From the NCBI GenBank assembly GCA_964461135.1, contig CAYWTB010000001.1, positions 8,082 through 72,081 on the forward strand: DNA of 64,000 nucleotides. The letters are read 5' to 3'. Position 1 is the stretch's first letter. Each line of letters begins with the position of its first letter. Of the stretch, positions 1-48,413 are shown one piece after another. Position numbers and translations under genes: made by a program. Under the pieces are notes generated by a model. That model did not search any database and was not told the DNA's origin. It was given only the letters and a program-made list of their open reading frames with translations. Source of the stretch: an uncultured Caldithrix sp. (GTDB lineage Bacteria > Calditrichota > Calditrichia > RBG-13-44-9).

Positions 1-708
1 CACCTTGACGTTAAAATTTCCAATAAATCCGGACACATGCTCAATTTCACTGTAAGCTAAAAGCTTTATTCGGGGATGTCGACCGACATCCATCATCTTC
101 GGTCCCAGAATTCATATGGAACAATCCATGGTCGGATAAGTCTTATCCAGTGCCGCCATTATACCACCGATGCTGGGTTCTTTTTCCACCAGGTAAACCT
201 GATGCCCTGCATCTGCCAGATCCAGCGCCGTCTGAATGCCCGCCACGCCTCCACCCACCACCAGCGCGCTTTTTGTCACCGGTACCTCTGCCTCAGTTTG
301 CGGTTCCAGAACCCGGGCGCGAGCCACTGCACTTTTTACCAGATCTTTGGCTTTGGCAGTAGCTGCCTCTCTTTCGTTCTGATGCACCCAGCTACAGTGT
401 TCCCGGATATTGGCCATTTCATACAGGTAGGGATTTAAACCTGCATCCGCCACGCATTGCCTGAAGGTGGGTTCATGAATTTTAGGTGTACAGGAAGCCA
501 CAACCACACGATTCAGTTTGTGTTCCATGATGGCCCGCTTGATTTCATTCTGGCCCGGATCAGCACAGGTGTATTTGTTGCGTACCACTACTACTACATC
601 ATCCAGCGTCTCAGAATATTTTGCCACCTCAGCGCAATCCACCGTGCCGGCAATATTCAGACCGCAATCACATACAAATACACCGATTCGTAATTTTTCT
701 TCATTCAT
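1..708 (-). CDS. hdrA: Heterodisulfide reductase subunit A (HdrA) paralog. Selenoprotein with in-frame UGA at 112..114. 5'-proximal part only; the CDS continues past the window start.
   Basis: Starts [21 protein letters not shown] (HdrA N-terminal 4-Cys domain). An FAD-binding GxGxxG domain follows ([18 protein letters not shown]), ending ...[33 protein letters not shown]. The frame stays open through position 1 after the TGA. The TGA replaces the second Cys of the conserved HdrA DCxxC(I)L(A/G)PK motif. Confidence 0.8.
61..111 (-). promoter_or_regulatory. Candidate SECIS hairpin immediately 3' of the UGA (mRNA GGAUG-UCGGUCGA-CAUCC)
   Basis: An 18-nt stem-loop at 74..91 lies about 20 nt downstream of the UGA. 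The hairpin segment is nucleotide-identical to the one after the second hdrA UGA apart from one loop base. The codons between UGA and hairpin differ at wobble positions. Confidence 0.35.
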
Positions 709-764: not shown

Positions 765-1532
765 TTAAATGGGACCCTCCGGATATTGGGTAAATTCGGA
801 AATGGAATCGATCATCTTCCGGACGCGCTTATCATACGGATTTAATTCCAGAGCTTTATTAAGACTGTAGAGCGCCTCATGGTGTCTTTCCAGATTGTTA
901 TAAGCCTTGCCCAGGTGATAATAAGCCGCTTCGTGATCCGGATGAACTTTCAGAAGCCTTCGCAGTACTTTTATGGCCTCTTTATTCTCTCCCATGGTTA
1001 AATAAATGATTGCCAGGTCATATAAGGTAATGAAGGACTGCGGGTCCCTCTTCAGTGAATTCAGCAAAGATTCGATTGCCTGGTGTGTATGGCCTGCCCG
1101 GTAATTCATGAGGCCCAGCCAGTAATATGCCATGCTGAATTCCGGGTCAATTTCCACCACGTGGTGCATGGATTTTATAGCCTGGTTTAGCTGAGCAGAC
1201 CGGAAATAACACAGACTCAAATGATAATGAGCAAGTGCAAAATTGGGATCGATTTCCAGGATTTCCTCAAATGTTGAAATTGCTTTCTTAATGTGGCCTT
1301 TTAAATAATACAGGTGTCCCAGATCATGACGGTATGATATATTTTCAGGTTCCTGGCTGATTTTCTTCTTTATTTTCTCAATTGCATCCTGCAGCTTTAC
1401 GGTATCCGAAAATTTTTCGTTGCCAATTTTAAATTGAGATGATTTTACAGTTTTTTTTGAACTTTTCTTGGCATCAGACAATTTTTTAATCCCCTTTTCC
1501 TTTATCTCAACACAGTCTACAACGGAACACAT
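765..1532 (-). CDS. Tetratricopeptide-repeat (TPR) protein
   Basis: Multiple 34-aa TPR-like repeats (AxxYYxLGxxYxxxGxxxxAIxxFxxALxLxP pattern repeated). Lys-rich C-terminus. Confidence 0.7.
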   Translation of the reverse strand: MCSVVDCVEIKEKGIKKLSDAKKSSKKTVKSSQFKIGNEKFSDTVKLQDAIEKIKKKISQEPENISYRHDLGHLYYLKGHIKKAISTFEEILEIDPNFALAHYHLSLCYFRSAQLNQAIKSMHHVVEIDPEFSMAYYWLGLMNYRAGHTHQAIESLLNSLKRDPQSFITLYDLAIIYLTMGENKEAIKVLRRLLKVHPDHEAAYYHLGKAYNNLERHHEALYSLNKALELNPYDKRVRKMIDSISEFTQYPEGPI

Positions 1533-1906
1533 TTATATCCGTAATGGATAATTCCTGCCGCACCGTCCTCCGAAATACGGCGGAATTCTATTCTTAAGGG
1601 CATTCCGGTGGCCAGTTTTTTCAAATCGCAATCCGAAATCTGTGAAAGAATCTTTACGCCTTCTTTTAAACGCACAATTCCAATGGCATAGGGAACCTGG
1701 TCTGAAAACCGGGAAGGAGCTACATGAATGATGGTATAGGTTTCCAGATTCCCTTCCCTGGAAAGGGTAATGGTTTCAAATTTCCGTTCTCCGCATTCTG
1801 CACAAACCAGCCTTTTCGGGAAATGAACATTTCCGCACTTCCGGCATTTTCCGGCTTCCATTCGGTAGCGATGAGGCATTTCGCGCCAATATTTTGAGAC
1901 TGACAT
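1517..1906 (-). CDS. DUF35 / Zn-ribbon + OB-fold protein (thiolase-HMGCS scaffold partner)
   Basis: CRKCGNVHFPKRLVCAECG zinc-ribbon followed by an OB-fold-like segment, about 129 aa. Translationally coupled to the upstream thiolase by a start/stop overlap at 1906. Confidence 0.75.
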   Translation of the reverse strand: MSVSKYWREMPHRYRMEAGKCRKCGNVHFPKRLVCAECGERKFETITLSREGNLETYTIIHVAPSRFSDQVPYAIGIVRLKEGVKILSQISDCDLKKLATGMPLRIEFRRISEDGAAGIIHYGYKCVPL

Positions 1907-3066
1907 TACACCACCTCCAAAATATGAACAAGAGTACTTCCCCCGCTTCCTCCCATGTTCTGGGAAAGGCCGGTTCGGGCGTTTTCCACCTGCCGGGCAC
2001 CGCCCTCCCCCCGCAGCTGAGTGACAATTTCCACAATCTGAGCAACTCCGGTAGCTCCCACCGGATGACCTTTCGATTTCAATCCTCCGCTCACATTTAC
2101 CGGGATCTTACCTCCCAACCGTGTTGCGCCTGAGGCTGTAGCGTCCCCGCCCTTCCCCCGGGCTGCAAAGCCCAATTCTTCAATCACACATATTTCTGCG
2201 ATGGTAAAACAATCATGAACCTCACACAGGTCAATTTTTTCCGGGGAAGTTTCTGCCATTTTGTAGGCCAGTTGTGCTGCTTTTGCGGTTGCCGGCAGGG
2301 AGGTCAGATCGGATCGGTTGTGTAACGCTATGCTGGCTGTGGCATGACCGAAGCCTTTTATTCTTACCGGAGGTTTTTTGGATATCTTTTTAGCCAGATC
2401 CAGCGGGCACAGGATTATGGCGGCAGCTCCATCGGTTATGGGTGAGCAATCCAGGATTCGGAGGGGATCGGCAATCATAACCGAATTCATAACCTGTTCT
2501 AGGGTTATTTTCTGAGGGTACTGAGCCAGCGGATTCATTGAACCGTGGTAGTGATTTTTCACCGCCACTTCGGCCAGCTGTTCACGGGTAGTACCGTATT
2601 TCAGCATATGAGATCTGGCCATCATAGCGTACAGTCCCGGAAAAGTGATGCCATGATAAACCTCGTAATCCTGGTCGGCAGCGGTAGCCAGTGCATAGGT
2701 AGCTTCATCCGTACCCACATCAGTCATTTTTTCCACCCCACCCACCAAAACCACGTCGCTTAATCCCAGGGCAACATCCATATAACCCATTTTTACAGCC
2801 AGGCCTCCCGATGCACAAGCGGATTCCACCCGGGCTGCCGGAATGGGGGTTACTCCCAGGTAATCTGCCATAAGGGCAGCCAGGTGTTCCTGGCCGGTAA
2901 AAATTCCCGCTGTCATATTACCAATATACATGGAGTCGATCTTATCCACCCCGGCATCATCAATAGCGGATTGTGCAGCCTCCACAAAAATATCCCGCAG
3001 AGAACTCTCCCATAATTCCCCCCATCTGCTCAAACCAATGCCAATCACTGCTACATCACGACTCAC
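1906..3066 (-). CDS. Thiolase family protein (acetoacetyl-CoA thiolase-like, SCP-x/archaeal type)
   Basis: [11 protein letters not shown]...ESACASGG (active-site Cys) ...GHPVGATG. 386 aa, thiolase fold signatures. Confidence 0.85.
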
Positions 3067-3105
3067 ATTCCGCTCCTTGTTTTTGCCTGCTCATATTTAT
3101 TGCCA

Positions 3106-4152
3106 TCAACTGTTTTTAATTATTTTTCGCCGGTATTTCGAATAAAGACCATAATCGAGATATATTTTTTCACCCTGAATGAGATCCCACGTTTTAGGAG
3201 CAGCGTCCCTCACCCTGCTGATTCTGTCGGTAATCTTCCAGATAAAGCCGTCGCTTCCCGCACCCGAGCCGTAAGATACCATAAAGATCAAATCCCCGGG
3301 ATTTGACACATCCAGGATGGCGGTTAGTCCCAGGGGCGACGAACCGGAGTAGGTATTTCCGATTTTAGGGCAGAGTAATCCCTGTGAAATCTGATCCTTG
3401 CTGAAACCCAGCATTTGTCCCACCTTGGTGGGGAATTTTCCGTTGGGCTGATGGAACACGGCATAAGCAAAATCGGATGGTTTCAATCCCGATTTATCCA
3501 GCATTGTTTTACCACACTGATATACGTGCTTAAAATACGCGGGCTCGCCGGTAAAACGGCCACCATGTTGCGGATAGAACTGGTGTTCCCGGCGCCAGAA
3601 GTCCGGTGTATCACTCATGAAGGAAAAGGTGAGTTCACAGCTAGCAATCAAATTATCTTTTCCCATGATAAAAGCCGCCGCACCGGCCGAGGCTGTATAC
3701 TCCAAGGCATCGCCGGGCGCGCCCTGGGAAGTATCCGCCCCCACCGCCAGGGCGTATTTCATGCTGCCGGCCTTTACCAACTGCAGGGCAACAAACATTG
3801 CCTCCGTTCCCGCTTTACAGGCAAATTCAAAATCGGCGCAATGGGCGTCCGGAGTGGCACCGATAGCTTCTCCCAGGGTTGTCCCGCTGGGTTTAACGGC
3901 ATAAGGGTGCGATTCAGAACCCACATAAACCGCTCCGATATCCGAGGCCCGGATACCTGCTCTGGCCAATGCCCGGCGGGACGCTTCCACAGACATGGTA
4001 ATGGTATCCTGATCGGGAGCAGGCACGGACTTTTCCTCTACCATTAATCCCTTACGGTAACTTTCCGCATCTGCCCCCCACTGGCGGGCGATTTCTTCAA
4101 CCCGGATCCGATATTTTGGAACATAACTGCCATATCCAACAATACCAACCAT
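3106..4152 (-). CDS. Hydroxymethylglutaryl-CoA synthase-like condensing enzyme (archaeal type)
   Basis: MVGIVGYGSYVPKYRI...ADFEFACKAGT... 348 aa. Initiation-condensing-enzyme fold with catalytic Cys. Typical of the HMGCS that partners with thiolase and DUF35. Confidence 0.75.
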   Translation of the reverse strand: MVGIVGYGSYVPKYRIRVEEIARQWGADAESYRKGLMVEEKSVPAPDQDTITMSVEASRRALARAGIRASDIGAVYVGSESHPYAVKPSGTTLGEAIGATPDAHCADFEFACKAGTEAMFVALQLVKAGSMKYALAVGADTSQGAPGDALEYTASAGAAAFIMGKDNLIASCELTFSFMSDTPDFWRREHQFYPQHGGRFTGEPAYFKHVYQCGKTMLDKSGLKPSDFAYAVFHQPNGKFPTKVGQMLGFSKDQISQGLLCPKIGNTYSGSSPLGLTAILDVSNPGDLIFMVSYGSGAGSDGFIWKITDRISRVRDAAPKTWDLIQGEKIYLDYGLYSKYRRKIIKNS

Positions 4153-8066: not shown

Positions 8067-8092
8067 GTCGAAATTCCACTTTCATTTAATAT

Positions 8093-8572: not shown

Positions 8573-8621
8573 GTGTTAGTCTTTCTCCTGTCCGGTTGAA
8601 CTCTCCTGCGGGACTGCATTT

Positions 8622-11699: not shown

Positions 11700-11809
11700 A
11701 CTTCCCTTTCCATTTGGAATTTACGTTACGTATATGGATAATTATTGGCTATCCGCAAATTTCAAATTTCAGATTTATGATAAATGACAACCAATAATCG
11801 AGCTTTACA

Positions 11810-14443: not shown

Positions 14444-14714
14444 GTGCTCGCTCCTTTTCGTTCTGAAGTACACAATATATCGCAAATTCCGGGCATAACA
14501 TCTCACACAGCTGACAATGAACACAGATAGTCCCATTCTTTACAATCGGGGGATGGTAACCTTTGGAATTGAATTCTGTGGAAAGTTCTAGAACATCTTT
14601 GGGGCAATATTCCACGCAAAAACCACACCCTTTACATCGTTCCCATAGAATATGAAGCTCTCCGTGAGGAATTTTTACCCGGTCGATATCCAACGGTTTA
14701 CGCCAATATTTCAT
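14433..14714 (-). CDS. 2-oxoacid:ferredoxin oxidoreductase, delta subunit (2x[4Fe-4S] ferredoxin)
   Basis: CKGCGFCVEYCP and CVHCQLCEMLCP motifs. 93 aa. Confidence 0.85.
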   Translation of the reverse strand: MKYWRKPLDIDRVKIPHGELHILWERCKGCGFCVEYCPKDVLELSTEFNSKGYHPPIVKNGTICVHCQLCEMLCPEFAIYCVLQNEKERAHES

Positions 14715-28707: not shown

Positions 28708-29575
28708 ATGAATAGAATATTAATATTTTTCACTGGCCTGGCTATGGTTGTGATGATATCGGCCGCTTTCAGTCAGATTCCTAATTCCGGCTTCGAACAA
28801 TGGGCAGCCGGCAATCCGGTGGGTTGGGCAACTCCCAATTCACCCGGCTTTTTTGTTCCCATTACTCAATCCACTGATGCCCACTCAGGAACATATGCCG
28901 TTAAGGGGCAAGTGGTGAATTTTGTTGGACTGGCCATTTCTCCCAGCCTGGTATCCGGTGATTCTCTCGGAGGTTTCAGCTTTAACCAGCGGCCGGCAGC
29001 ATTGCAGGGTTATTACAAGTACTCTCCGGTGGGGGGAGATCTTTTCTTTGCCACTGCCATATTTTATTCACAGGGGATGGGGATTGCCTTTGGCGAGATA
29101 TTAATTTCCAATACTGCCACAGGTTATACTCAGTTTACGGTCAATCTCGATTATTTCAGTAATGACCTCCCGGACACCTGCTACCTCCATATTCTTTATT
29201 GCAGATACAGCCACGGGTGAATCCCACGTAGGATCCACCTTCTGGCTGGATGACCTTTCGTTCTCCGGGACGGTGGGTATTGCTGATAACCAGCCTGCGC
29301 CGGTACCTGCCGGGTATGTTCTTTTCCAGAACTTTCCTAACCCGTTCAATCCCTCCACTACCATCTCTTTTAATCTGCCGGAGCCGTCAAATGTGACTCT
29401 GGTAATCTATAACAGCATCGGTCAGGAAGTAAGCCGTCCGATCAATCACGAAATACTTGGCACGGGAAACCATTCCGTCAATTGGTCTGCCCAGGATTTA
29501 CCCAGTGGAATCTATTTTTACCATCTGATCAGCGAAGCAGGCATGCTCAACCGCAGGATGATTCTGATGAAATAA
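28708..29575 (+). pseudogene. Secreted protein with T9SS C-terminal sorting domain, split by a +1 frameshift near 29185-29200
   Basis: Signal peptide at 28708. Frame 1 ends at 29220 and frame 2 continues from 29162 through FQNFPNPFNPSTTISFNLP...GIYFYHLI (T9SS CTD). Confidence 0.6.
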
Positions 29576-37187: not shown

Positions 37188-37586
37188 TCAGCCCTCTTCG
37201 CTGAGTTCAGTGAGGGGAGACTTATAACAAAGATGAGGGAAATTAAAGTGTAAAAAAAGATTATTTTGCAGATAAGTGCGCACAGATTCCCTTGAGACTT
37301 GTGACTCTGGTAATGCCTTATTAAGGTAACCTGTCTGAACCATTTGAGAAATATTCTGGTTAATGCCACTCAGTTGTTTCGTATTTAAGTAGAAAATGTC
37401 CTGAAATTCATCGGCAGACACCCAGAAATAAGAATGTGATGATTCGTTAAAGGTTAGTGCTGAAACTTCGTGCTGGAAGGAAAAAAATAGCAAAACCAGA
37501 TAAAGAAACAGAAAAAGTATATTTCTAAATTTAAAACAGTTTTTCATAAAGCCGGAAAACCTCTGCATGGATAATCCATACAACAC
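37188..37586 (-). CDS. Hypothetical secreted protein
   Basis: Signal-peptide-like N-terminal region. 132 aa. Confidence 0.35.
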   Translation of the reverse strand: MLYGLSMQRFSGFMKNCFKFRNILFLFLYLVLLFFSFQHEVSALTFNESSHSYFWVSADEFQDIFYLNTKQLSGINQNISQMVQTGYLNKALPESQVSRESVRTYLQNNLFLHFNFPHLCYKSPLTELSEEG

Positions 37587-38127
37587 AATTTAAAACTGAT
37601 TTTTACATTTTAAAAGCTAAATTTATCAACATATTTACACAATATTATACATGTGTGCTCACAAAATGTATTAAGAAATTATCTTTACTGAAAGTTTGCA
37701 TATCTTTTCTGAATCGAACCATCCGGGCGGTACAGAAACACCTCACTGGATATCAATTCATCGATGTAGACATGAGCAGCTTTCTCAGCATCTTCACGGC
37801 TGTAAAAGATCTTCAATACTTCGCCATTTTTTAGGATATGCCATTTTTCCCTCCTTTCCTTTACTTGATTATTGTGCGGATCTTTTATTACATTCTCATG
37901 ACACTGTTGTTACATTTAAAAGTTTTTTTTTTAGCGGTCTGGCATTAATGGCCGCCATTTCATCTTTAAATTTATGAAAATCTTCTTTTAATGCCGGGGG
38001 CTATCCAAAGCCGTTCGGACCTTAAAATTTGTACCGTGTTGACCGGAGTTTGCCCTCTTTTTTTCCGCTTGATTACATTTTCTAAAATTCTTAAATTTTA
38101 TAAATATTTATAAAATAATAAATAAAG

Positions 38128-39135
38128 TTGTTTTTTATGCCGGAACTCCGCAAAGACCCAGTTATTGGAAGATGGGTTATCATTTCCACCGAAAGAGGTA
38201 AAAGACCATCAGATTTCGCTGACACCCAGGTAAAGAAAGAAGGGGGATTCTGTCCGTTCTGCTATAATAACGAAGACAAAACACCTCCGGAGATATTTGC
38301 CATTCGCCCTGATAAATCCCAGCGCGATAAACCGGGATGGACCTTGCGTGTTGTGCCTAATAAATTCCCGGCTTTACGCGTGGAAGGTCAGCTCAACAGA
38401 CAGGGTGAAGGAATTTACGATAAAATGAATGGTGTTGGAGCTCATGAAGTGGTGATTGAGACACCCGATCATTTCAAGGATCTGGAAGATCTTGAAATCC
38501 CGACCATCCGCGATGTCTTCTGGGTTTTCCGCGAGAGGATGCTGGATTTGAAGAAAGATATCCGTTTAAAATATGTAATGGTCTTCAAAAATTATGGCCA
38601 GGCAGCCGGAGCATCTCTGGAGCATACTCATTCTCAGCTGATTGCTACTCCCATCATTCCAAAGACCGTCATCGAAGAAATGGAAGGATCAAGAGCATAT
38701 TTTGGTTTTAAGGATCGCTGTATTTTCTGTGACATTATTCGCCAGGAGATTACATCCAATGCACGGGTGGTATGCGATGATGAATTTTTCATTGCCCTGG
38801 AACCTTATGCTCCGCGTTTTCCATTCGAAACATGGATTTTACCCAAACAACATTTTTCTCATTATGAAACTATTTCCGATGACCTACTGCAACACCTGGC
38901 CCTGATCATGAAAGAAATACTCGGCCGGATAAACATGGCATTGAATCATCCGCCTTATAATTTTGTGATTCATACCTCGCCCTTACAGGACGAACCGGAT
39001 GAATCCTATCACTGGCATATTGAATTTATGCCGAAACTTACCCGTGTGGCCGGTTTTGAATGGGGTACCGGATTTTATATCAATCCCACCAGCCCGGAAG
39101 ATGCCGCTCAGTATTTAAAACAGATTACTCTTTAA
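38128..39135 (+). CDS. galT: Galactose-1-phosphate uridylyltransferase (HIT family, type 1)
   Basis: CPFC zinc motif. HTHSQL (HxHxQ) active site. Confidence 0.85.
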   Translation: MFFMPELRKDPVIGRWVIISTERGKRPSDFADTQVKKEGGFCPFCYNNEDKTPPEIFAIRPDKSQRDKPGWTLRVVPNKFPALRVEGQLNRQGEGIYDKMNGVGAHEVVIETPDHFKDLEDLEIPTIRDVFWVFRERMLDLKKDIRLKYVMVFKNYGQAAGASLEHTHSQLIATPIIPKTVIEEMEGSRAYFGFKDRCIFCDIIRQEITSNARVVCDDEFFIALEPYAPRFPFETWILPKQHFSHYETISDDLLQHLALIMKEILGRINMALNHPPYNFVIHTSPLQDEPDESYHWHIEFMPKLTRVAGFEWGTGFYINPTSPEDAAQYLKQITL

Positions 39136-39149
39136 TCTCGAGGTAAATA

Positions 39150-40628
39150 ATGAGACAATTAAAAATATGTTATGTTTCATCGGAAGTCGTGCCATTTGCC
39201 AAGACCGGGGGATTAGCCGACGTGGCAGGGGCACTTCCCGTCGCTCTCAAAGATATGGATCTGGATATCCGTGTGATGATGGCAAATTATAAATCAATAA
39301 ATGAACGAAAGTTCGTATTGCGTGAAGTGATCCGCTTGAAGGAGGTAAAAGTAAGCCTCAATGATGACACAAAGATAATTGATGGTAAGACCGCTTTTTT
39401 ACCCAATTCAAAAGTCCATGTCTATTTTTTACATATTCCCGATTATTTTGACCGCAAAGAACTTTATGTGGATCCCGCAACCGGCAAGGATTTTGAAGAT
39501 AATGCGGAAAGATTTGCATTTTTTAGTAAAGCCACACTGGAAACTTTAAAACTTCTTTACTGGCAACCCGATATTATTCACTGCAATGAATGGCAAACCG
39601 CTCTTATCCCCTATTATCTTAAAACCCTTTATAAAGATGACGAGTTTTTTAAAAATAGCCGGACTGTCCTCACACTTCATAATCTGGCCTACCAGGGCAG
39701 TTTCCCGCTGGAAAAAGCGAAAAAAATAGGGATTAGTGATGAATATTTAAAACCCGGAAGAGAATTTGAATTTTACGGAAACCTGAATCTGCTTAAGGGT
39801 GGTATTCTGTTTTCAGATGTATTGAATACAGTCAGTGAAAAATATGCAGAAGAAATCACCGAGAGTCCCGAATTCGGCTTTGGATTTGAGAAAATCCTGG
39901 CCAGCCGTAAACAGGATCTTGTGGGTATATTGAATGGGGTGGATTATGAGCAATGGAATCCGGAGACGGATAATCTGATTGCAAAGAATTACTCACCAGA
40001 CTCCCTGGAAGAAAAAAGTAAAAATAAAAAAGCCCTGTGTAAACAAAATAATCTGACCTACCGGGAAGACGTTCCGGTTATTGGGATAATTTCACGCCTG
40101 ACGGATCAGAAAGGATTTGATCTGATTGCCGAAGCAGTAGACGATATTATGAAAATGAACCTTCAGTTGGTTATACTGGGAAACGGGGAACCCCGGTATC
40201 ACAGACTCCTGGAGAAACTGGCTAAAAACTCTCCCGAGAAACTGGCGGTAAATTTGCGTTTCGATAATAAACTGGCACACCTTATTGAAGCGGGTGCTGA
40301 TATGTTTTTAATGCCGTCTCATTTCGAACCCTGCGGTTTAAATCAGATGTACAGTCTGAAATACGGAACCGTTCCCATTGTAAGGGAAACCGGGGGATTG
40401 GCAGATACCATTGAGAACTATGATCCCAAAACAGGATCCGGAACCGGTTTCACATTTAAAAAATATGATGCCAAAGAAATGCTCAAAGCCATCCGCAGGG
40501 CTGTCAAGACTCTCCAGGATAAAAAATCCTGGAGAAAAATTCAGAAAGCGGGCATGGCAAAAGATTTTTCATGGGCCCAATCCGCCCGCAAATATCACGA
40601 ACTTTACGAAAAGGCTTTAAAAAAATAA
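39150..40628 (+). CDS. glgA: Glycogen/starch synthase (GT5)
   Basis: ICYVSSEVVPFAKTGGLADV N-terminal signature. 492 aa. Confidence 0.9.
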   Translation: MRQLKICYVSSEVVPFAKTGGLADVAGALPVALKDMDLDIRVMMANYKSINERKFVLREVIRLKEVKVSLNDDTKIIDGKTAFLPNSKVHVYFLHIPDYFDRKELYVDPATGKDFEDNAERFAFFSKATLETLKLLYWQPDIIHCNEWQTALIPYYLKTLYKDDEFFKNSRTVLTLHNLAYQGSFPLEKAKKIGISDEYLKPGREFEFYGNLNLLKGGILFSDVLNTVSEKYAEEITESPEFGFGFEKILASRKQDLVGILNGVDYEQWNPETDNLIAKNYSPDSLEEKSKNKKALCKQNNLTYREDVPVIGIISRLTDQKGFDLIAEAVDDIMKMNLQLVILGNGEPRYHRLLEKLAKNSPEKLAVNLRFDNKLAHLIEAGADMFLMPSHFEPCGLNQMYSLKYGTVPIVRETGGLADTIENYDPKTGSGTGFTFKKYDAKEMLKAIRRAVKTLQDKKSWRKIQKAGMAKDFSWAQSARKYHELYEKALKK

Positions 40629-40696
40629 GAGTCTACTTCACCTAATCCACAGGCCTCCAATGATACTGACGGAGGCTTTTCATCTACTGACGAAAT

Positions 40697-41290
40697 ATGA
40701 TTTACGAAGGTAATGCCGGGAAATCTGCTTTTTTTCTTGACCGTGACGGTACAGTTTGCGAAGAGGTGGGATATATAAAAGATGTGGACCAACTTCAGCT
40801 TATTGAGGGCTCAGCCGAGGCCATACGGATCATCAACCGGCACGGGTGGAAAACCATCATCATCAGCAATCAATCGGGGATTGCCCGAGGCTTCATGGAT
40901 GAAAGCGATGTAGATGCGGTCAATAATGCCCTGCTTGCCAGGCTCAACCATCAAAATGCTTATATAGAGCGAATTTATTATTGCCCCCATCACCCACAAG
41001 GTAATGCACCGTATAACATATCCTGTGATTGTCGCAAACCGGCCGGGGGCATGCTTCTTCAGGCAGCAACAGAACTGGATATAGATCTGAAGCAATCCCT
41101 GGTAATAGGGGACAAATTAACCGATGTTGAGACCGCTAACCGTCTGGACATTCCGGGCATCCTGGTACTGACCGGTTTCGGTGCCGAAGAAAGCAAATCC
41201 ATGCATAATCCGATTCTGACCAGGGCACCGGCACATATCGCTAGGAATTTATTGGACGCTGTACGCTGGTGGTTTTCACATAATAATTAA
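40697..41290 (+). CDS. gmhB: D,D-heptose 1,7-bisphosphate phosphatase (HAD, histidinol-phosphatase-like)
   Basis: FLDRDGT ... CxH...CxC Zn motif (CPHHP...CDCRKP). Confidence 0.8.
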   Translation: MIYEGNAGKSAFFLDRDGTVCEEVGYIKDVDQLQLIEGSAEAIRIINRHGWKTIIISNQSGIARGFMDESDVDAVNNALLARLNHQNAYIERIYYCPHHPQGNAPYNISCDCRKPAGGMLLQAATELDIDLKQSLVIGDKLTDVETANRLDIPGILVLTGFGAEESKSMHNPILTRAPAHIARNLLDAVRWWFSHNN

Positions 41291-41419
41291 GCGGACCCTT
41301 AAACAGCGGACTTTAAACAATGTTTCTAAATACCTAATCCCAAACTGCTTGATTTTTTTTAAGGTAATTATTACTTTAGATTCATAAAATACCCAGCGTA
41401 GAACAAGAGCTAATGATAA

Positions 41420-42169
41420 ATGAAAACCATTACGTATGAAAAAATACTTTCATTTGCCCGGGAAAAACGGGCCGGATTTATAATGCTTATGGACCCGGAC
41501 CGCCTGCCTCTGGACCAGGTAAGTTCCACCGTTATCCAGGCCAGGGAAAACGGGGTAGACATATTTTTTGTGGGGGGCACACTGCTTTTGAGCCGCAATT
41601 TCGATGATTTCGTCCGCCTGGTAAAAGAAGCTGCCGGAGATATACCGGTGATTCTCTTTCCGGGAAGTGTCTTCCAGGTATCCAAATTCGCCGATGCTAT
41701 TCTGTATTTGTCCATCATCAGCGGAAGAAATCCGGCCTATCTTATCGATAACCAGGTTCTTGCAGCACCCATTGTATGGCAGCTTCAGGTGGAGGCCATA
41801 TCCTGCGGATATATGCTGATAGAGTCCGGACAAATGACCAGTGCGGAATTCATGAGCAATTCACATCCCATTCCCCGCCATAAACCGGATCTGGCGCTGG
41901 CTCATGCACTGGCCGCCCAGTACCTGGGATTTAAAGTGGTTTATCTGGAGGGGGGCAGTGGCGCCCAGCTGTCTGTACCGGAAGAAATGATTATGGCTGT
42001 CAGTAAAACTATTTCCATTCCCGTAATTGTCGGTGGAGGTATCCGGACACCGGAAATGGCACAGAAAAAAGTTCAGGCGGGAGCGTCCTTCGTGGTTATA
42101 GGCAATCATTTTGAAGATCCCGACAATTTTGAAAAAATCAAAGAATTCGCCGAGGCTATTCATCAGTAA
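41420..42169 (+). CDS. Geranylgeranylglyceryl-phosphate synthase / PcrB-family prenyl-glyceryl phosphate synthase
   Basis: IMLMDPD, GVDIFFVGGT, ILFPGS, GRNPAY, YLEGGSGA, VGGGIRT: all hallmark GGGPS/PcrB TIM-barrel motifs. Confidence 0.8.
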   Translation: MKTITYEKILSFAREKRAGFIMLMDPDRLPLDQVSSTVIQARENGVDIFFVGGTLLLSRNFDDFVRLVKEAAGDIPVILFPGSVFQVSKFADAILYLSIISGRNPAYLIDNQVLAAPIVWQLQVEAISCGYMLIESGQMTSAEFMSNSHPIPRHKPDLALAHALAAQYLGFKVVYLEGGSGAQLSVPEEMIMAVSKTISIPVIVGGGIRTPEMAQKKVQAGASFVVIGNHFEDPDNFEKIKEFAEAIHQ

Positions 42170-42194
42170 TCTCGGGCAAAGACTGGATTCAGGT

Positions 42195-42803
42195 ATGAAT
42201 AATTCAAAACGAAATGCAGACTGGCACAAGATTCTGGAACAGAATGTCCAGGAAAATATCGAAGTTAAGATGGAACTGCTGGCCCACACCGAAGAGACCA
42301 TCCTGCATGCCATCCATCAACTGAAAAAAACCATAGAAAAGGACGGGAAAATTCTGTTGTGCGGTAATGGCGGCAGTGCAGCCGATGCCCAGCATATTGC
42401 CGCTGAACTGGTAGTCCGCCTGAAAAGCACTTACGACCGGCCTGCTATTGCGGCTCAATCACTAACTGTTGATACCTCTATCATTACGGCCAGCGGAAAT
42501 GATTACGGTTTTCGATTTATATTTGCCAGACAGATTGAAGCACTGGGAAGACATGGTGATACTCTAATCGCTATCAGCACCAGCGGAAATTCCGAAAATG
42601 TAATCGAGGCCGTCAACATGGCACATGAAAGGGGGTTGTATGTCATCGGGCTGCTGGGCCGTGACGGTGGGAAACTGCATGAGCTTGTAGATCTGGCAGT
42701 AATTGTTCCTTCTAAAAATACCGCCCGGATTCAGGAATGTCATTCCCTGATCGGGCACATTATCTGCGAAATTCTGGAAAAAGAACTCTTTCCTCTGCAA
42801 TAA
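42195..42803 (+). CDS. gmhA: Sedoheptulose-7-phosphate isomerase (SIS domain)
   Basis: LLCGNGGSAADAQHIAAEL ... AISTSGNS motifs. Start taken at the ATG at 42195, since the longer ORF overlaps the previous gene. Confidence 0.8.
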   Translation: MNNSKRNADWHKILEQNVQENIEVKMELLAHTEETILHAIHQLKKTIEKDGKILLCGNGGSAADAQHIAAELVVRLKSTYDRPAIAAQSLTVDTSIITASGNDYGFRFIFARQIEALGRHGDTLIAISTSGNSENVIEAVNMAHERGLYVIGLLGRDGGKLHELVDLAVIVPSKNTARIQECHSLIGHIICEILEKELFPLQ

Positions 42804-42967
42804 AATCCGAATAAATCTCTTTCCCTTACATTCAATTGCATGATGCCGGGATCCTGCAGGTGGCCTGATTCATCTTAATTAACAGCAACCTATGCTCCGG
42901 CAATTTACGGCATTTATTTCAGAACAGACAGACAACGAATTAGGGATCGACCCGCATCTTTTTCAGG

Positions 42968-44095
42968 CTATGAGGCAATTATTTTGTCTATCACCTGAAT
43001 ATGTTGCTGTGCGGACTCCTGCCAGTTAAAATGAGCCGTTCGATGGAGCCCTTTTTCTTTTAATTCACTACAGAGTGCACGATCCGAAAGCAGTTTACCT
43101 ATGCTATCCGCAATAGCATTCACATCAAGAGGATCCGCATAGTATGCGGCGTCCTCACAAATTTCCCGCATGATATCAATATCGGATACCAGCGCCGGAC
43201 AACCGCAGGCCATGGCTTCCAGGGGGGGGAGTCCGAATCCCTCATAAAGGGAAGGAAAAATAAAAAGGGTTGCCAGATTATAAAGCAGGGCCAGATCCTG
43301 TTCAGGCAGCCAAGAGGTAAATATCACCCGATCTTTTAAAAAGGGATCATCTTTGATAAGTACGGCTGATTCCCGGTCCGTCGTGATCAGCCCTTCTTTC
43401 TTTCCCGCCAGAAACAACTTAATATCCTCTCCATCCTGCAGGAATTTTCGGAAAGCCAGTAACAGGCGTTTCAAATTTTTATGCGGTTTGATGCTTCCCA
43501 CGGAGAGGATATATCGTTCCGGTAATTGATATTTGTTCCGGATTTGCTTAAGAACACCACCGTTACTTTCAATCCTGAATAATTTCCTGTTCACGCCGTT
43601 GTAGATCACCGCAATATTCTCCCGGGAAGCACCGGTATAGCGGCAAATCTCCTCCCGGGAGGTGTTTGAAACGGTTATAATCTTATCTGATTTTTTTACC
43701 GCCCGGCGAAACATGTACCGCGCATATAGTTTTTGCATCAACGGTAACAGATCATAAAAGGCGAGGTGATAGACATCATGAATGGTAACGATGCGTTTTT
43801 TTGCCCGCACCGGTAAAAGAGGAATATTAAAGTGGGGAGACCAGAAAACGTCAGTTCGGGGTATTTTGCGGGACAGTTCCAGCTGCTCACTGACCGAGTA
43901 AATGGAGCTTCCGGTTTCAATAATTTCCACCTGATTTATCCAGTTAAATTCCTGCAGATTTTCTCCGGAGGCCAGCAGAAATACTCTATAATGGTCCAGA
44001 ATCAGCGGAATAAGATTTCGGATATAAGTACCAATCCCGGCATGGTGAATCATCCGGACATCAACCGTCAGTATTTTTTTTGAGGGTCTGCTCAA
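42968..44095 (-). CDS. Glycosyltransferase family 4
   Basis: GT4 C-terminal domain (EGFGLPPLEAMACGCP). Confidence 0.8.
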   Translation of the reverse strand: MSRPSKKILTVDVRMIHHAGIGTYIRNLIPLILDHYRVFLLASGENLQEFNWINQVEIIETGSSIYSVSEQLELSRKIPRTDVFWSPHFNIPLLPVRAKKRIVTIHDVYHLAFYDLLPLMQKLYARYMFRRAVKKSDKIITVSNTSREEICRYTGASRENIAVIYNGVNRKLFRIESNGGVLKQIRNKYQLPERYILSVGSIKPHKNLKRLLLAFRKFLQDGEDIKLFLAGKKEGLITTDRESAVLIKDDPFLKDRVIFTSWLPEQDLALLYNLATLFIFPSLYEGFGLPPLEAMACGCPALVSDIDIMREICEDAAYYADPLDVNAIADSIGKLLSDRALCSELKEKGLHRTAHFNWQESAQQHIQVIDKIIAS

Positions 44096-45114
44096 AGTTG
44101 TTTCCCCATTTTGCCCCTGAAGCAGTCGGATATTCCCCGGATGCCGGCCAGAAATCCCCTGAAATGTAAATTTATTATTCTTTTCAATATACGCAGGCAG
44201 ATATACAGGAAATTGAACGGTAAATACTTTCTGAAATATTTAAGATTCAAAAAAAGATTATTGCGAATACCATAATAATCTTTCAGAATGCTGGAGGCCG
44301 CCTGCCCTTCACGGTGAAAAACAACTGAATCCAGAGCTGCAGCTACTCTAAAACCATGGCAGGCGGCATTTAAACAGTAATCCACATCATCTGAATAAAC
44401 AAAAAAATCTTCACTAAGAAGCCCGGTTTTTAGAATACACTTTTTCGAGATCAGAAATGAAGCTCCCACAATATAATTCATCTTCACAAGGTCTTTTTCT
44501 TTCAGCACATGACGGCTGCTACCCCACACCGGACTGACAATACCGCCACCCAGCGCCTGAAATATCTCCGGATGGTTATAGGTCATCAGACTGGAACCAG
44601 TAATGCCGATTTTATCATCACCATTCGCTTTCTCCACCAATCTGGTAAGAGCATCCTCCGCCACCACCGTATCATTATTCAACAACCAGATAAAATCGTA
44701 ATTATTGTAGTGCATGGCAAAACGTATGCCCACATTATTTCCACCCGTGAAACCCAGGTTTTCATCCGACCTGATCAGAATAAAGTTGTTTTTATTCCGG
44801 ATTTTCAGTTCCGGTTTATTTTTCCTGGTTTCCGGGGAATCGAATTTCTTAAATCCTTTGGCAGATAAATGCATATATTTCAGTGGTTTTTTTAAGGGGG
44901 GTTGCGTAAGGTACCTTAAGGGATTAGAAGGACTTAACCAGTGATCCAGTTTCCCTTCAGCCCAGTTTCTGATAAGTTCCGGCGAGTTGTCAGCAGAGCC
45001 ATTTTCCACCAGTACTACTTCAAAATCAGGATAATCCATTCTCAGAAGGCTCTCCAGGCATTCGATGGTATCGGCCCAGCCGTTATAATTCAGAATGATA
45101 ATACATACCTTCAA
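44092..45114 (-). CDS. Glycosyltransferase family 2
   Basis: CIIILNYNGWADT...DFEVVLVENGSAD GT2 motifs. Confidence 0.8.
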   Translation of the reverse strand: MKVCIIILNYNGWADTIECLESLLRMDYPDFEVVLVENGSADNSPELIRNWAEGKLDHWLSPSNPLRYLTQPPLKKPLKYMHLSAKGFKKFDSPETRKNKPELKIRNKNNFILIRSDENLGFTGGNNVGIRFAMHYNNYDFIWLLNNDTVVAEDALTRLVEKANGDDKIGITGSSLMTYNHPEIFQALGGGIVSPVWGSSRHVLKEKDLVKMNYIVGASFLISKKCILKTGLLSEDFFVYSDDVDYCLNAACHGFRVAAALDSVVFHREGQAASSILKDYYGIRNNLFLNLKYFRKYLPFNFLYICLRILKRIINLHFRGFLAGIRGISDCFRGKMGKQL

Positions 45115-45143
45115 TCTATTCTCTTCACCGGATTTAAATTATA

Positions 45144-45980
45144 CTATTCTATGGCCTTGTTCATAAAAACTGGAAATAACAGTGATTGCCTGTGGACGGC
45201 AACAACATTTTGATACCCAAAAATTTCACGATAAACCGGATGGCTGTTATCCAGCAGAACCCATCCGTCGGTCAGTAATCTGTAAAAGGAATACTGTGGC
45301 AACAGTTTCATGAAATCGTTCATGAAAACCTCACTGACAGCATTAAGCTCACCGAACTCAAACTGGATGCACTGTATCCGCCCTTCACTTAACGTCTTAC
45401 GGGCCCCCTTCAATACATTTAGTTCATTCCCCTCCGTATCGATTTTTAACAGATCAATTTGCCTGATCTGATGTTCCTTCGCAAAATGATCGATAGTATC
45501 TATGTCTACCAGGTGTCTGATCGCTTTTCCGTGATGAATATTCTCAATTACCTCCCTGTAGAGGGAAGCATGGGTTGAACCATCCTGATTGATATAGTCA
45601 TACAGGGCCGATTGCTTTTCTTCTTCTCCAAACCCGATGTTAAATGATTCAAACTGATACCTCTCGGCGACTTTTTCTAATTTTTTATAGGTTTTGGGAT
45701 GGGGTTCAAACGCGTAGATCTGCATACAGGTGGATACGCTTTTTATCATTTTGGCATAAAATCCCTGATTGGCACCAATGTCAAAAACCACCGCTGCCGG
45801 TAAATGTTTGCAAACGGTTTGCAGGAAAAATTTTTCACCACTGGCCCCGGGAGTGATGGAATTAAACATTCCCATGCCATGAAGACTGAGCATATAGATT
45901 CTCCGGTTGAAGCGATAAAATTTTCGATTGCCAAAAAAAGAGACATACCATTCTAACAAACGATGCTTTAATTTCTCCAT
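45144..45980 (-). CDS. FkbM-family methyltransferase
   Basis: FDIGANQGFY...YAFEP motifs. Start trimmed to an internal Met to avoid overlap with the upstream GT4. Confidence 0.7.
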   Translation of the reverse strand: MEKLKHRLLEWYVSFFGNRKFYRFNRRIYMLSLHGMGMFNSITPGASGEKFFLQTVCKHLPAAVVFDIGANQGFYAKMIKSVSTCMQIYAFEPHPKTYKKLEKVAERYQFESFNIGFGEEEKQSALYDYINQDGSTHASLYREVIENIHHGKAIRHLVDIDTIDHFAKEHQIRQIDLLKIDTEGNELNVLKGARKTLSEGRIQCIQFEFGELNAVSEVFMNDFMKLLPQYSFYRLLTDGWVLLDNSHPVYREIFGYQNVVAVHRQSLLFPVFMNKAIE

Positions 45981-46011
45981 GACAGTTTTTCTCAATAACT
46001 TGTTCTCAGGG

Positions 46012-47118
46012 TTAACGGAGATGTCTGCCAAGTATATCATCCCACTTTTCAGACAACTTTTTTGCAGTATAATTTTGTGCAAGTTGAATCGACTTTTTCT
46101 TCCTCTCAATCAGTTCAGAGTGGTTTTCAAACAAGTCCTTAAGAATAATAGAGGCATCCCGGCAGAATACCGTTTCATTCAATAAGAAACCTGTCCCACT
46201 ATTCTGCAGAATCTCCCGGGGCCCGGCAAGACTGCTGGCAATGACAACCGTTCCACAGGCCATTGCTTCGATGATAACCATGCCGAAAGTTTCTTCCCAA
46301 CGGGGAGTTTTCCGGCTGGGCAGCAAAAGAACATCACTCTCCCGGTAAATACCCGCCAGTTTTGCGGGATCATCAATGAAACTTTGCCAGTGCACATTTT
46401 TGCAATGCCGGGTTTTTTCAATGATATGCGGTTTTAAATTACCTTCCCCGATAAACCAGAAATCAAAATTATCCTTCGGCAGCCGCTCGGAAAGGGTCAA
46501 AATATCATCAATTCCTTTTTCTTTGACCAGGCGTCCCACATATAAACAGTTTAACTTGGATTTACCTGCCTCAGAATAAAGCTGTTGGTTATCCGTATGG
46601 AATATTTTTTCTTCAAATGAATGCATTACAACAGTGGCAGGACATGATATCCGGTATTTCTGCCGAAGACTGTTTAAGGCTGTTTGTGTAATGGCGAAAA
46701 GACCGGCAACCTCTTCCTCCAGAAAACGTTTCCAGGTATTCTGCACAAGTCTGATTCCTCCCAATCGCGGTTTCGGGAAGTGAGTACCCTGCCAGTTTGC
46801 CCAGGAGGTAAAATAAAACACTTGGTGGTGTTTCAATATTCCGCAAAGATCCAGCATACGAAAATCATAAGGCGCCATTCCCAGTATAACAACTTTGTTT
46901 TTAGAGAAGAAAAGCCAAAAAAAAGTATAAAGGTTCTTCGGCACCTTTTTTAAGGAGCGAAAAGATTTTTCTTTAATGATCCTCTTAAAAAAGCCGGACA
47001 GGGAATATTCACGGTAATACAAACGGACCTGCGGGTATCTTTTTTTCAGCAGATATTCCAGAGCCCGGAAGTGACGTTTCTCACCATATTCATGTAAAAC
47101 GATCAGTTCTTTACTCAT
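46012..47118 (-). CDS. Glycosyltransferase family 4
   Basis: GT4 C-terminal EX7E-type region (ETFGMVIIEAMACGT). Confidence 0.75.
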   Translation of the reverse strand: MSKELIVLHEYGEKRHFRALEYLLKKRYPQVRLYYREYSLSGFFKRIIKEKSFRSLKKVPKNLYTFFWLFFSKNKVVILGMAPYDFRMLDLCGILKHHQVFYFTSWANWQGTHFPKPRLGGIRLVQNTWKRFLEEEVAGLFAITQTALNSLRQKYRISCPATVVMHSFEEKIFHTDNQQLYSEAGKSKLNCLYVGRLVKEKGIDDILTLSERLPKDNFDFWFIGEGNLKPHIIEKTRHCKNVHWQSFIDDPAKLAGIYRESDVLLLPSRKTPRWEETFGMVIIEAMACGTVVIASSLAGPREILQNSGTGFLLNETVFCRDASIILKDLFENHSELIERKKKSIQLAQNYTAKKLSEKWDDILGRHLR

Positions 47119-48413
47119 ATCAATTCCGGAGCTGACAACATGTTTATTTTGTGTTTTTGAAGAGTGAGATATCCCAGGCTGATAATGGTTGTCTGGGCTA
47201 ATACATTGGAAAGTGCAACACCATTGGCCCCAAAATGAAAAATGACCAGGAAGAGGAATAGCATCACAAAATTTGTCAGCGCCCCGCTGACGTAAATGGC
47301 TGAAAAATATTTATCCAATTTAAATGAGAGCAGTGCCACATTAAAAACAAGGTAAGACAACGGCGTAATAACGACCAGAAAGGAAAAAATCCGGAAGATG
47401 GGCACTGCCGGGAGATATTCGCTCCCCAGTACCACCAGTACGATTTGCTTTGCACCGCCAAAAATGACTATCCATCCCAGCACGGCGAATATCAGGGTAT
47501 AACGATTAATTTTACGTATGAATTCGATGGCCTTTTGCCGGGCAGTCTCCGCCAGCTGGGCACAGTGAGGATAAATGGCCTGGTAAAGGGGATTGGGCAT
47601 AAATTTAATGGCCTGAATAATTTTTTCCGCCGAGGTATAATAACCGACGATGGTATTAGTGGTAACCAGTCCCAGAATAAGAGTATTTGTAGTGGTGTAC
47701 AGGCTGATGGAAATCTGGCTGATAAAAATATACCAGCCTTCCCTGAACTGCCTTTTAACTATTCTTAGGGCCGGAAAATGAAATTTCACTTTAAAGCGTG
47801 CCAAAACCGTAATAACCGCAATCACTCCACCGCTGATGAAGCCCAGAGAATTCAACAGCGGGACATAAATGTAATCTGACGGTCTTGTAATAAATATAAA
47901 AATAGATAACGTAAACAGCAATTTGGCAGTCAGATTGATGACGGTCTGATATTTCATTTTTTCAATCCCCTGGAAAAACCACAGCGGGAATAAAACCTGT
48001 CCGATCACAATTCCAAATGTCAGATAATAGAGCGGCCAATCCGGGGAGAATCTTTCAAATCCGAATACAATAATGGTCATAATCCCTAAAGATAAGAGAG
48101 TTAAAGTGAGTTTGATGAGCATTACGCTGCTGTATATCTGAGAGAGACGATTCCGGTCATTTCGAGCCAGGGAAATGGCCCGGGTAGCTGAAAGGTTAAA
48201 TCCGAAATCAGTGACCACAATAAAATGCCATATAAATGCCTGAGCAAACATTACCAATCCGAATTTTTCCACTCCCAGCACACGTACCAGGTAGGGGAGC
48301 GTAATGAGGGCCAGCAGGTAGTTGGCACCCTGTAAAAAGGAAAGAGAAAAGAAATTTTCGGCTATTTTTTTCTTATTCCTGTCCTGGAAAAAATTTTGCA
48401 GCCGTTTTTTCAT
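47115..48413 (-). CDS. wzx: Polysaccharide flippase (Wzx/MOP superfamily)
   Basis: About 12 predicted TM helices. N-terminus typical of O-unit flippases. Confidence 0.75.
   Translation of the reverse strand: MKKRLQNFFQDRNKKKIAENFFSLSFLQGANYLLALITLPYLVRVLGVEKFGLVMFAQAFIWHFIVVTDFGFNLSATRAISLARNDRNRLSQIYSSVMLIKLTLTLLSLGIMTIIVFGFERFSPDWPLYYLTFGIVIGQVLFPLWFFQGIEKMKYQTVINLTAKLLFTLSIFIFITRPSDYIYVPLLNSLGFISGGVIAVITVLARFKVKFHFPALRIVKRQFREGWYIFISQISISLYTTTNTLILGLVTTNTIVGYYTSAEKIIQAIKFMPNPLYQAIYPHCAQLAETARQKAIEFIRKINRYTLIFAVLGWIVIFGGAKQIVLVVLGSEYLPAVPIFRIFSFLVVITPLSYLVFNVALLSFKLDKYFSAIYVSGALTNFVMLFLFLVIFHFGANGVALSNVLAQTTIISLGYLTLQKHKINMLSAPELI

Follow-up and report, generated by a model that had tools for sequence, protein, structure and literature searches.

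A group II geranylgeranylglyceryl phosphate synthase of the bacterial FCB clade and its conserved gmhA-like neighbor in an uncultured Caldithrix sp.

The geranylgeranylglyceryl phosphate synthase (GGGPS)/PcrB superfamily comprises two groups: group I contains PcrB of Firmicutes and the enzymes of a few Euryarchaeota, and group II contains the enzymes of most Archaea and of Bacteroidetes and other Fibrobacteres-Chlorobi-Bacteroidetes (FCB) bacteria (PMC7888582, PMC9385802). Group II enzymes of Bacteroidetes and Cloacimonetes form geranylgeranylglyceryl phosphate (GGGP) from sn-glycerol-1-phosphate (G1P) in vitro (PMC7852524, PMC7888582). GGGPS together with digeranylgeranylglyceryl phosphate synthase (DGGGPS) was found in 12 of the 12 FCB phyla surveyed by Coleman et al. 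(2019), with "Caldithrix" in the table (PMC6431249). Villanueva et al. (2021) showed activity of the Cloacimonetes enzyme and put forward the idea of mixed membranes in the FCB group (PMC7852524), and according to Kropp et al. (2021) the biological function of bacterial ether lipids is still unknown (PMC7888582). The subject of this work is a GGGPS gene in a 64,000-nucleotide stretch of DNA from an uncultured Caldithrix sp. (assembly GCA_964461135.1, contig CAYWTB010000001.1, positions 8,082 to 72,081 of the forward strand), hereafter the window. The G1P-based ether-lipid potential that a preliminary description of this DNA ascribed to FCB bacteria has indeed been proposed in print (PMC7852524, PMC6431249). 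Group II GGGPS is already recorded across the FCB superphylum, with crystal structures and assays of homologues, and also for Calditrichota; it is hence not new in this phylum, and the enzyme, an ordinary member of a documented type, adds little by itself; the one new lead is the conserved pairing of its gene with a gmhA-like gene.

41420..42169, + strand: group II (FCB-type) GGGPS of 249 amino acids (aa), an open reading frame (ORF) from ATG to stop; PF01884, NF003198 and TIGR01769; PDB 4JEJ at 2e-53

The 249-aa ORF lies exactly at the position first described, on the plus strand and with an ATG start, and the public gene call gives the same protein (P0001, 100% identity), which is already on record in the public collections NCBI, JGI and Logan. 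All six motifs quoted in the preliminary description (LMDPD, VGGT, ILFPGS, GRNPAY, YLEGGSGA, and VGGGIRT) are found in the translation. The protein matches the Pfam PcrB family PF01884 over residues 16-246 (score 126.6 against a cut-off of 23.9, E = 1.4e-36) and passes the cut-offs of NF003198 of NCBIfam (271.5 against 247, 5e-81), of the GGGP equivalog TIGR01769 (197.5 against 161.55) and of the GGGPS/PcrB superfamily model TIGR01768 (160.2 against 113.25). The Pfam and NF003198 matches lie well outside what chance would produce. It fails those of the PcrB-like NF003199 (46.5 against 169) and of TIGR04146, which describes the Archaeoglobus fulgidus-type enzymes of group Ia (27.6 against 320). 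A phmmer search of the PDB returned the GGGPS of Flavobacterium johnsoniae (4JEJ, 2e-53) and Methanothermobacter thermautotrophicus (4MM1, 3.6e-47) and the Thermoplasma enzymes 6JO3 (3e-41) and 6NKE (3e-36), with the heptaprenylglyceryl phosphate synthase 4NAF/4NAE at about 1.5e-3 at best.

The AlphaFold model, built from a 48-sequence alignment (pLDDT 88.3, pTM 0.89), has an N-terminal helix (residues 4-15) preceding the strand 19-24; the (beta-alpha)8 barrel of group II has such an additional helix, alpha-0. Foldseek aligned the model to the group II structures 4JEJ, 4MM1, 6JO3 and 6NKE with TM scores of about 0.86-0.90 and root-mean-square deviations (rmsd) of 2.3-2.5 A; the scores were 0.67-0.76 for PcrB and A. 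fulgidus GGGPS (0.67-0.70 for 2F6U/8RUW) and 0.79 for MoeO5. Because curated hidden Markov models (HMMs), sequence matches to solved structures and fold agree, three independent tests place the product of this ORF in group II: it is a GGGPS of the bacterial FCB clade, not PcrB.

The active-site and interface residues were examined by published criteria (PMC9385802, PMC7888582) in alignments with 76 homologues from FCB bacteria, 131 library representatives and the GGGPS of F. johnsoniae (Fj) and M. thermautotrophicus (Mt). The Tyr/Tyr/Glu triad is present as Tyr131, Tyr175 and Glu177, aligned with the Fj and Mt residues, and the phosphate loops of beta-alpha 6, 7, and 8 are present as Ser180-Gly181, Gly205-207 and Gly228. 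Across the 76 FCB loci Tyr131 and Ser180 are invariant, Tyr175 is kept in 74 and position 177 is Glu or Asp. The chain-length limiter column, in which a small aliphatic residue (Mt V86, Fj I90) is the proposed group II determinant (PMC9385802), holds Val87 here and Val, Ile or Leu in 39, 30, and 7 FCB loci, respectively. A C20 substrate fits this limiter, and the enzyme is predicted from Val87 to be C20-specific. Phe144 occupies the "aromatic anchor" column (Mt W141, which is Ala in the 5NF1 variant; Arg in Fj), and this column is Phe or Tyr in 76 of 76 FCB loci. Since an aromatic anchor (W/Y/F/H) in the ring interface is a hallmark of hexamers, with Arg found in the dimeric Flavobacteriales enzymes (PMC7888582, PMC9385802), the enzyme is probably a hexamer.

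The same results bear on the possibility that the gene encodes a PcrB-type heptaprenylglyceryl phosphate synthase (C35) like that of Bacillales. Both activities share the Pfam family PF01884, and the generic name given to relatives by PGAP spans the two. Such an identity is nevertheless extremely improbable given the NF003199 score of 46.5 against 169, the PDB match of 1.5e-3 compared with 2e-53 for group II GGGPS, the TM scores of 0.70-0.76 at 15-23% identity, and a limiter column with Val, as in the C20-specific Mt enzyme (PMC9385802). The earlier naming of the protein as GGGPS or PcrB therefore stands as regards a prenyltransferase of the GGGPS/PcrB family, while its PcrB half does not: NF003199, PDB matches and TM scores all favor group II GGGPS.

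The closest homologues are 57-87% identical and all metagenomic, the named ones being metagenome-assembled genomes (MAGs) of Calditrichaeota/Calditrichia. The best loci in genome collections belong to Calditrichota, followed by KSB1, Ignavibacteria, "Bacteroidota" MAGs, Chlorobi, Zixibacteria, and Latescibacterota. The GC content of the gene (0.485) is similar to that of its neighbors. A recent horizontal acquisition was considered and rejected, as the nearest relatives follow taxonomy and the gene has the GC content of the genes around it. GGGPS is an old, vertically inherited FCB gene. Two peptide patterns alone detect relatives in at least 575 stretches of GTDB species representatives, and the homologues collected at E <= 1e-3 amount to 1315 representatives after 50% clustering.

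The genes around GGGPS in the window, identified with Pfam and NCBIfam profiles and by their best matches, are as follows.

38128-39135, + strand: galT-like HIT-family transferase (Pfam/NCBIfam), first gene of the run
39150-40628, + strand: glycogen synthase glgA (Pfam/NCBIfam)
40697..41290, + strand: gmhB-like HAD-IIIA phosphatase, 197 aa (HAD-IIIA profile; best matches GmhB)
42195..42803, + strand: gmhA-like SIS-domain sedoheptulose-7-phosphate isomerase, 202 aa (best matches GmhA)
42968..48413, - strand: convergent polysaccharide cluster with a glycosyltransferase (GT) of family GT4, a GT2, an FkbM methyltransferase, another GT4 and a Wzx-type flippase (Pfam)

GGGPS is thus flanked by two heptose-type genes, as had been described, with a gap of 129 nt to the gmhB-like gene upstream and of 25 nt from its stop codon to the gmhA-like gene downstream. 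The start of the latter is most likely the ATG at 42195 rather than the TTG at 42111, in agreement with a 202-aa database gene call. The gmhB-like protein scores 164.2 with NF006506 (cut-off 178), 140.1 with TIGR00213 (cut-off 149.6) and 104.7 with the HAD-IIIA model TIGR01662 (cut-off 44.6); its best PDB matches are E. coli GmhB 3L8E (1e-33) and then HisB (2e-16). Its sequence contains CPHH...CDC, which we take to be the HAD-IIIA zinc loop (Cys-x-His...Cys-x-Cys). The gmhA-like protein scores 188.8 with TIGR00441 (cut-off 209.45) and 214.9 with NF010546 (cut-off 276), and phosphoheptose isomerases of the PDB (6e-50 to 3e-38) match it ahead of DiaA (5e-35). At least 90% of the 58 linked homologues retain the GmhA motifs GGSAADAQH..AAE, STSGNS and RIQE.H....H; these motifs, common to solved GmhA structures, are presumably active-site residues. 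The SIS protein was also considered as a source of G1P, and this role was rejected: the GmhA motifs are kept, and the aldose-ketose isomerization carried out by SIS/GmhA enzymes is a different chemistry from the reduction of dihydroxyacetone phosphate or the inversion of glycerol phosphate.

A promoter and terminator scan of positions 37400-43200 gave fewer sites than shuffled sequence and is uninformative on operon structure; no terminator-like site was found by it between GGGPS and gmhA. Scans of the 64-kb window for tRNA genes and Rfam families gave no match. The galT-like gene, which also matches DUF4921, lies directly upstream of glgA, and this pair is kept in Calditrichaceae (L002, L004, L005, L006, L009); no glgC accompanies it in the window. 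The galT-like protein may be a nucleotide-sugar phosphorylase or transferase partnering GlgA.

Two approaches were used to compare gene order at 79 distinct species-level loci: tblastn searches with the proteins of the window, and an unbiased clustering of every neighboring ORF; 76 loci were informative and in three of the 79 the locus ends were cut. A gmhA-like gene lies directly downstream of GGGPS and on the same strand in 61 of the 76 informative loci, slightly further downstream in four, and is absent from 11. The adjacent pair was found in 12 of 13 loci of Calditrichota, 27 of 32 of Ignavibacteria (including Melioribacteraceae), 12 of 16 of "Bacteroidota" MAGs, 5 of 5 of Zixibacteria, 1 of 1 of KSB1, 1 of 2 of Chlorobi and 0 of 1 of Latescibacterota. 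The pair persists at a mean amino-acid divergence of 45%, and the distance matrices of GGGPS and the SIS protein co-vary (Mantel r 0.80, reached by 0 of 2000 permutations). The pair is not universal, as F. johnsoniae GGGPS has no gmhA neighbor. In the 11 loci without gmhA, GGGPS is accompanied by genes for chemotaxis, a beta-lactamase, TPR proteins, a Wzx-like flippase, and a GHMP kinase, and no DGGGPS or prenyl synthase was found among them. Candidatus Thermochlorobacter aerophilum (L031, 5068-5937) lacks the usual neighbors and has, directly upstream of GGGPS and on its strand, a gene for a 289-aa GHMP-family kinase of a size compatible with IspE or a mevalonate-pathway kinase.

The other neighbors change from lineage to lineage. 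The occurrence of the gmhB-like gene and glgA together upstream of GGGPS is confined to the six closest Calditrichaceae loci. Five of them (L002, L004, L005, L006, L009) also have the galT-like gene; L011, whose 5' end is cut, has glgA and the HAD gene only. Other Calditrichia have an NMD3-like zinc-ribbon gene at this place instead. In Ignavibacteria and their allies the block consists of alaS, GGGPS, gmhA and a WcaJ-type polyprenyl-phosphate glycosylphosphotransferase gene (TIGR03023, 466.7 against 410.75); the WcaJ-type gene follows the pair in 23 loci, and Wzx-like flippases occur in Calditrichia. The alaS gene is conserved beside GGGPS in 39 loci and is also found there in Zixibacteria, Chlorobi, and Latescibacterota. 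Conservation of gene order in Ignavibacteria and the MAGs allied to them extends over icd, clpS, alaS, GGGPS, gmhA, the wcaJ-like gene and a gene for a small membrane protein, followed on the opposite strand by tonB, exbD and exbB; the icd, clpS, alaS and TonB/Exb labels were given by reading representative sequences, not by HMM (L022, L024, L035, L039, L045, L048, L051, L059 and others). GGGPS and gmhA are an ancestral unit across several FCB phyla, and gmhB is a later addition. The preliminary description, in which GGGPS was "inserted between gmhB and gmhA," reversed this history. No co-mention of GGGPS with gmhA or phosphoheptose isomerase was found in the searchable literature.

The family, group, fold, residues, gene order, and conservation make it very probable that the gene, an old and vertically inherited one, encodes a cytoplasmic group II GGGPS of the FCB branch making GGGP, and that it is probably co-transcribed with gmhA. 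By homology, the cytoplasmic (beta-alpha)8-barrel enzyme, predicted to be hexameric, would bind Mg2+-geranylgeranyl diphosphate and G1P, ionize the diphosphate and move the C20 chain onto the C3 hydroxyl of glycerol phosphate. The predicted product, GGGP, would contain the first ether bond of archaeal-type lipids and, as the default expectation from the literature, would then be used by DGGGPS encoded elsewhere in the genome.

Several points weigh against this assignment. The basis for co-transcription is limited to spacing and conservation, because the promoter and terminator scan was uninformative. Next, Asn229 is found where group II is described with a conserved Thr, and Asn is the residue of the group I enzyme of A. 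fulgidus (N216). Since 48 of the 76 FCB loci and 69 of the 131 representatives have Asn at this position, it is a sub-clade marker and not an anomaly. It co-varies with position 177 in the 76 FCB loci, with N229 and E177 in 48, T229 and D177 in 21, T229 and E177 in 7, and N229 and D177 in none; of the loci in which gmhA is not next to GGGPS, all 10 that could be aligned are of the Asn229/Glu177 type.

41948-41950 (residue 177) and 42104-42106 (residue 229), + strand: co-varying G1P-site residues, from the alignment of loci L004-L083

Further points of the same kind concern the pathway. The ORFs of the window scanned for it were those of at least 120 aa outside longer ORFs, including every ORF above 300 aa and excluding 76-438, 29162-29575 and 37188-37586; no UbiA-type DGGGPS, polyprenyl or geranylgeranyl diphosphate synthase, or Fe-ADH/G1PDH-like enzyme (G1PDH, G1P dehydrogenase) was found among them. 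In the published survey, Fibrobacteres and Cloacimonetes were the only phyla recorded with G1PDH, and none was found in "Caldithrix" (PMC6431249). The Cloacimonetes GGGPS also takes sn-glycerol-3-phosphate (G3P) (PMC7852524), so that the product in vivo might have either stereochemistry, and the bacterial precedents assayed are homologues from Bacteroidetes and Cloacimonetes, none being from Calditrichota (PMC7852524, PMC7888582).

The conserved pair could indicate a shared pathway, in which a prenylglyceryl (phosphate) anchors or accepts a heptose-containing envelope glycoconjugate, instead of or besides diether phospholipids. While every other neighbor changes, the pair persists in 61 of 76 loci and in several phyla, gmhB was recruited beside it in Calditrichaceae, and polysaccharide genes follow it in different phyla (the WcaJ-type gene in 23 loci, Wzx and GT genes in Calditrichia, the convergent cluster in the window). 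DGGGPS and polyprenyl synthase are not co-localized with GGGPS here, unlike in Cloacimonetes (PMC7852524). We consider this pathway unlikely nevertheless. No GGGPS-SIS fusion occurs among the best 150 of 1315 representatives, F. johnsoniae GGGPS lacks a gmhA neighbor, and the remaining heptose-pathway genes are missing from the scanned window ORFs, among which neither the kinase and nucleotidyltransferase of this pathway nor a GT9 heptosyltransferase was found. We know of no prenylglyceryl-linked heptose lipid of such a kind. In addition, alaS, which has no plausible link to such a pathway, is likewise kept beside GGGPS in 39 loci, and slow-evolving synteny alone could therefore explain the pair; the pairing may be just that, a slow-evolving synteny of housekeeping envelope genes. 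A more far-reaching form of the idea, to which we give still less weight, is that a single envelope pathway underlies an ancient operon of GGGPS and GmhA in the deep-branching FCB lineages (Calditrichota, Ignavibacteria, Zixibacteria, KSB1 and some Chlorobi); in this pathway, for example, geranylgeranylglyceryl(-phosphate) would carry or anchor a heptose-containing glycan.

The long proteins among the best 150 of the 1315 representatives are ACPS-GGGPS fusions, a GGGPS-deaminase fusion, or proteins with unannotated extensions. In P0271, P0308, P0365 and P0369 (426-458 aa) an N-terminal 4'-phosphopantetheinyl transferase (PF01648) is fused to a C-terminal GGGPS, and F. johnsoniae has a separate ACPS-family gene upstream of GGGPS (L086, 5873-6523). 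Bacterial group II GGGPS has in the ACPS link a second and distinct association that recurs, with the fusions belonging to another branch than the pair; no co-mention of GGGPS with phosphopantetheinyl transferase was found in the searchable literature. In P0346, GGGPS is fused to a C-terminal TadA-like cytidine/deoxycytidylate deaminase domain.

Near the start of the window lie the genes of a trio named after 3-hydroxy-3-methylglutaryl-CoA (HMG-CoA) synthase (the HMGCS trio), cited in the preliminary description, which might bear on the supply of isoprenoid precursors.

1517-1906, - strand: DUF35 protein of the HMGCS trio (OB_ChsH2_C and zinc ribbon)
1906-3066, - strand: thiolase of the HMGCS trio (NF004720, 552.4 against 420)
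3106-4152, - strand: archaeal-type HMG-CoA synthase (TIGR00748, 537.7 against 353.35; NF003274, 542.6 against 244)

This trio (1517..4152) is a genuine archaeal-type set, located 37 kb from GGGPS and unlinked to it. It belongs to a minus-strand run (1517-14536) that also contains a second thiolase-like gene and genes for a 446-aa 3-hydroxyacyl-CoA dehydrogenase, HdrD-like (CCG) and MvhD/FlpD proteins, an HdrA-like protein (958 aa) and a three-subunit 2-oxoacid:ferredoxin oxidoreductase. With such a composition, the run looks less like a plain mevalonate operon than like an electron-bifurcating acyl-CoA module. HMG-CoA reductase, later mevalonate enzymes, and geranylgeranyl reductase were not found among the scanned window ORFs.

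GGGPS might feed a full archaeal-type route through DGGGPS and CDP-archaeol to a mixed membrane as in Ca. Cloacimonetes, with isoprenoid precursors supplied by the HMGCS trio. The joint occurrence of GGGPS and DGGGPS in all 12 FCB phyla surveyed, "Caldithrix" included (PMC6431249), the formation of archaeal-type lipids in E. coli by the Cloacimonetes GGGPS and DGGGPS (PMC7852524) and the presence of the genuine archaeal-type HMG-CoA synthase/thiolase/DUF35 set in the window speak for such a route, which we regard as possible but on balance doubtful. DGGGPS, polyprenyl synthase, G1PDH, and geranylgeranyl reductase are absent from the scanned window ORFs and were not found beside GGGPS in the 80 related loci. 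A tblastn search of the window and 86 loci (942 kb) with E. coli UbiA and IspA also gave no match, and is a weak test, with seeds distant from DGGGPS. The trio itself stands amid the Hdr-like, 3-hydroxyacyl-CoA dehydrogenase and 2-oxoacid:ferredoxin oxidoreductase genes, with later mevalonate genes absent from the scanned ORFs. Thiolase and HMG-CoA synthase genes of Cloacimonetes coexist with a complete methylerythritol phosphate (MEP) pathway (PMC7852524) and are thus no proof of a mevalonate route. No literature report of isoprenoid ether lipids from a Calditrichota culture was found.

In a lineage without G1PDH, GGGPS could also act in salvaging or breaking down archaeal lipids from the environment, or use G3P instead of G1P. 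The absence of G1PDH from "Caldithrix," for which a reverse, catabolic role was suggested as one possibility (PMC6431249), the G3P promiscuity of the Cloacimonetes enzyme (PMC7852524) and the lack of an Fe-ADH-family G1PDH-like gene among the scanned window ORFs are compatible with this explanation. It is made quite improbable by the conservation of the G1P-contacting residues across 76 FCB loci, by the fact that E. coli supplies G1P without G1PDH (PMC7852524) and by the housekeeping-like context (alaS, gmhA), which argues for a constitutive biosynthetic role. A biosynthetic GGGPS making GGGP, as set out above, is the preferred reading.

Some other features of the window concern neither GGGPS nor its neighbors. 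The ORF listed at 112..708 on the minus strand (window 1-708) encodes the N-terminal portion of an FAD/FeS protein of HdrA type, and its listed stop is an in-frame TGA at 112-114, beyond which the frame is open to the window edge, and a hairpin (GACCGA, 12 nt, TCGGTC) begins about 10 nt after this TGA. The codon is a candidate selenocysteine codon with a putative bacterial SECIS element, Cys and Sec being presumably equivalent in HdrA. For the two large ORFs at 54867-56948 (693 aa) and 62034-63731 (565 aa), Pfam gave no match at E <= 1e-5.

The purpose of bacterial group II GGGPS is the open question of the field, for which the GGGPS-gmhA pair and the ACPS-GGGPS fusions offer cheap, testable leads. 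If true, a GGGPS-GmhA envelope operon would for the first time give a group II GGGPS of bacteria a physiological role, one different from the "mixed archaeal membrane" idea. Among cultured organisms, Ignavibacterium album, Melioribacter roseus and Caldithrix abyssi should carry the pair.

Among described enzymes, PcrB of Bacillus and Geobacillus (group Ib; 1VIZ, 3VZX, 4NAF) has in common with the window protein the superfamily, the barrel and the G1P-prenylating chemistry (PMC9385802). It differs in sequence (15-23% identity, phmmer about 1e-3) and in fold (TM 0.70-0.76); a different limiter helix makes it C35-specific, and its product undergoes dephosphorylation and acetylation (PMC9179154). 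The M. thermautotrophicus GGGPS (4MM1), a group IIa hexamer, is much closer (phmmer 3.6e-47, TM 0.88-0.92), with Val as the limiter and an aromatic anchor (Trp141, corresponding to Phe144 in the window). However, the identity is 40%, the beta-alpha-8 phosphate-binding position holds Thr in this enzyme and Asn in the window protein, and the archaeal host has a complete ether-lipid pathway.

The best solved match is the F. johnsoniae GGGPS (4JEJ, group IIb; phmmer 2e-53, TM 0.87/0.90, rmsd 2.4 A), a characterized enzyme that forms GGGP and has no known biological role (PMC7888582). Barrel, Tyr/Tyr/Glu residues and phosphate loops are the same in both proteins, and the limiter is aliphatic (Ile90, Val87 in the window). 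At 42% identity, it differs in being a dimer with Arg at the anchor position, where the window protein has Phe144 (PMC7888582), and in Thr in place of Asn229; its gene has no gmhA neighbor, and an ACPS-type phosphopantetheinyl transferase gene is located 1.5 kb upstream.

Ca. Cloacimonetes NIOZ-UU3 likewise has a GGGPS of the FCB group, in a genome with normal fatty-acid lipid genes, no G1PDH, and genes for acetoacetyl-CoA thiolase and HMG-CoA synthase (PMC7852524). Its GGGPS gene, unlike that of the window, is co-localized with those for DGGGPS and polyprenyl synthase in the same scaffold region (PMC7852524). In the window and the 80 related loci neither of these two genes lies near GGGPS, and the conserved neighbor is gmhA.

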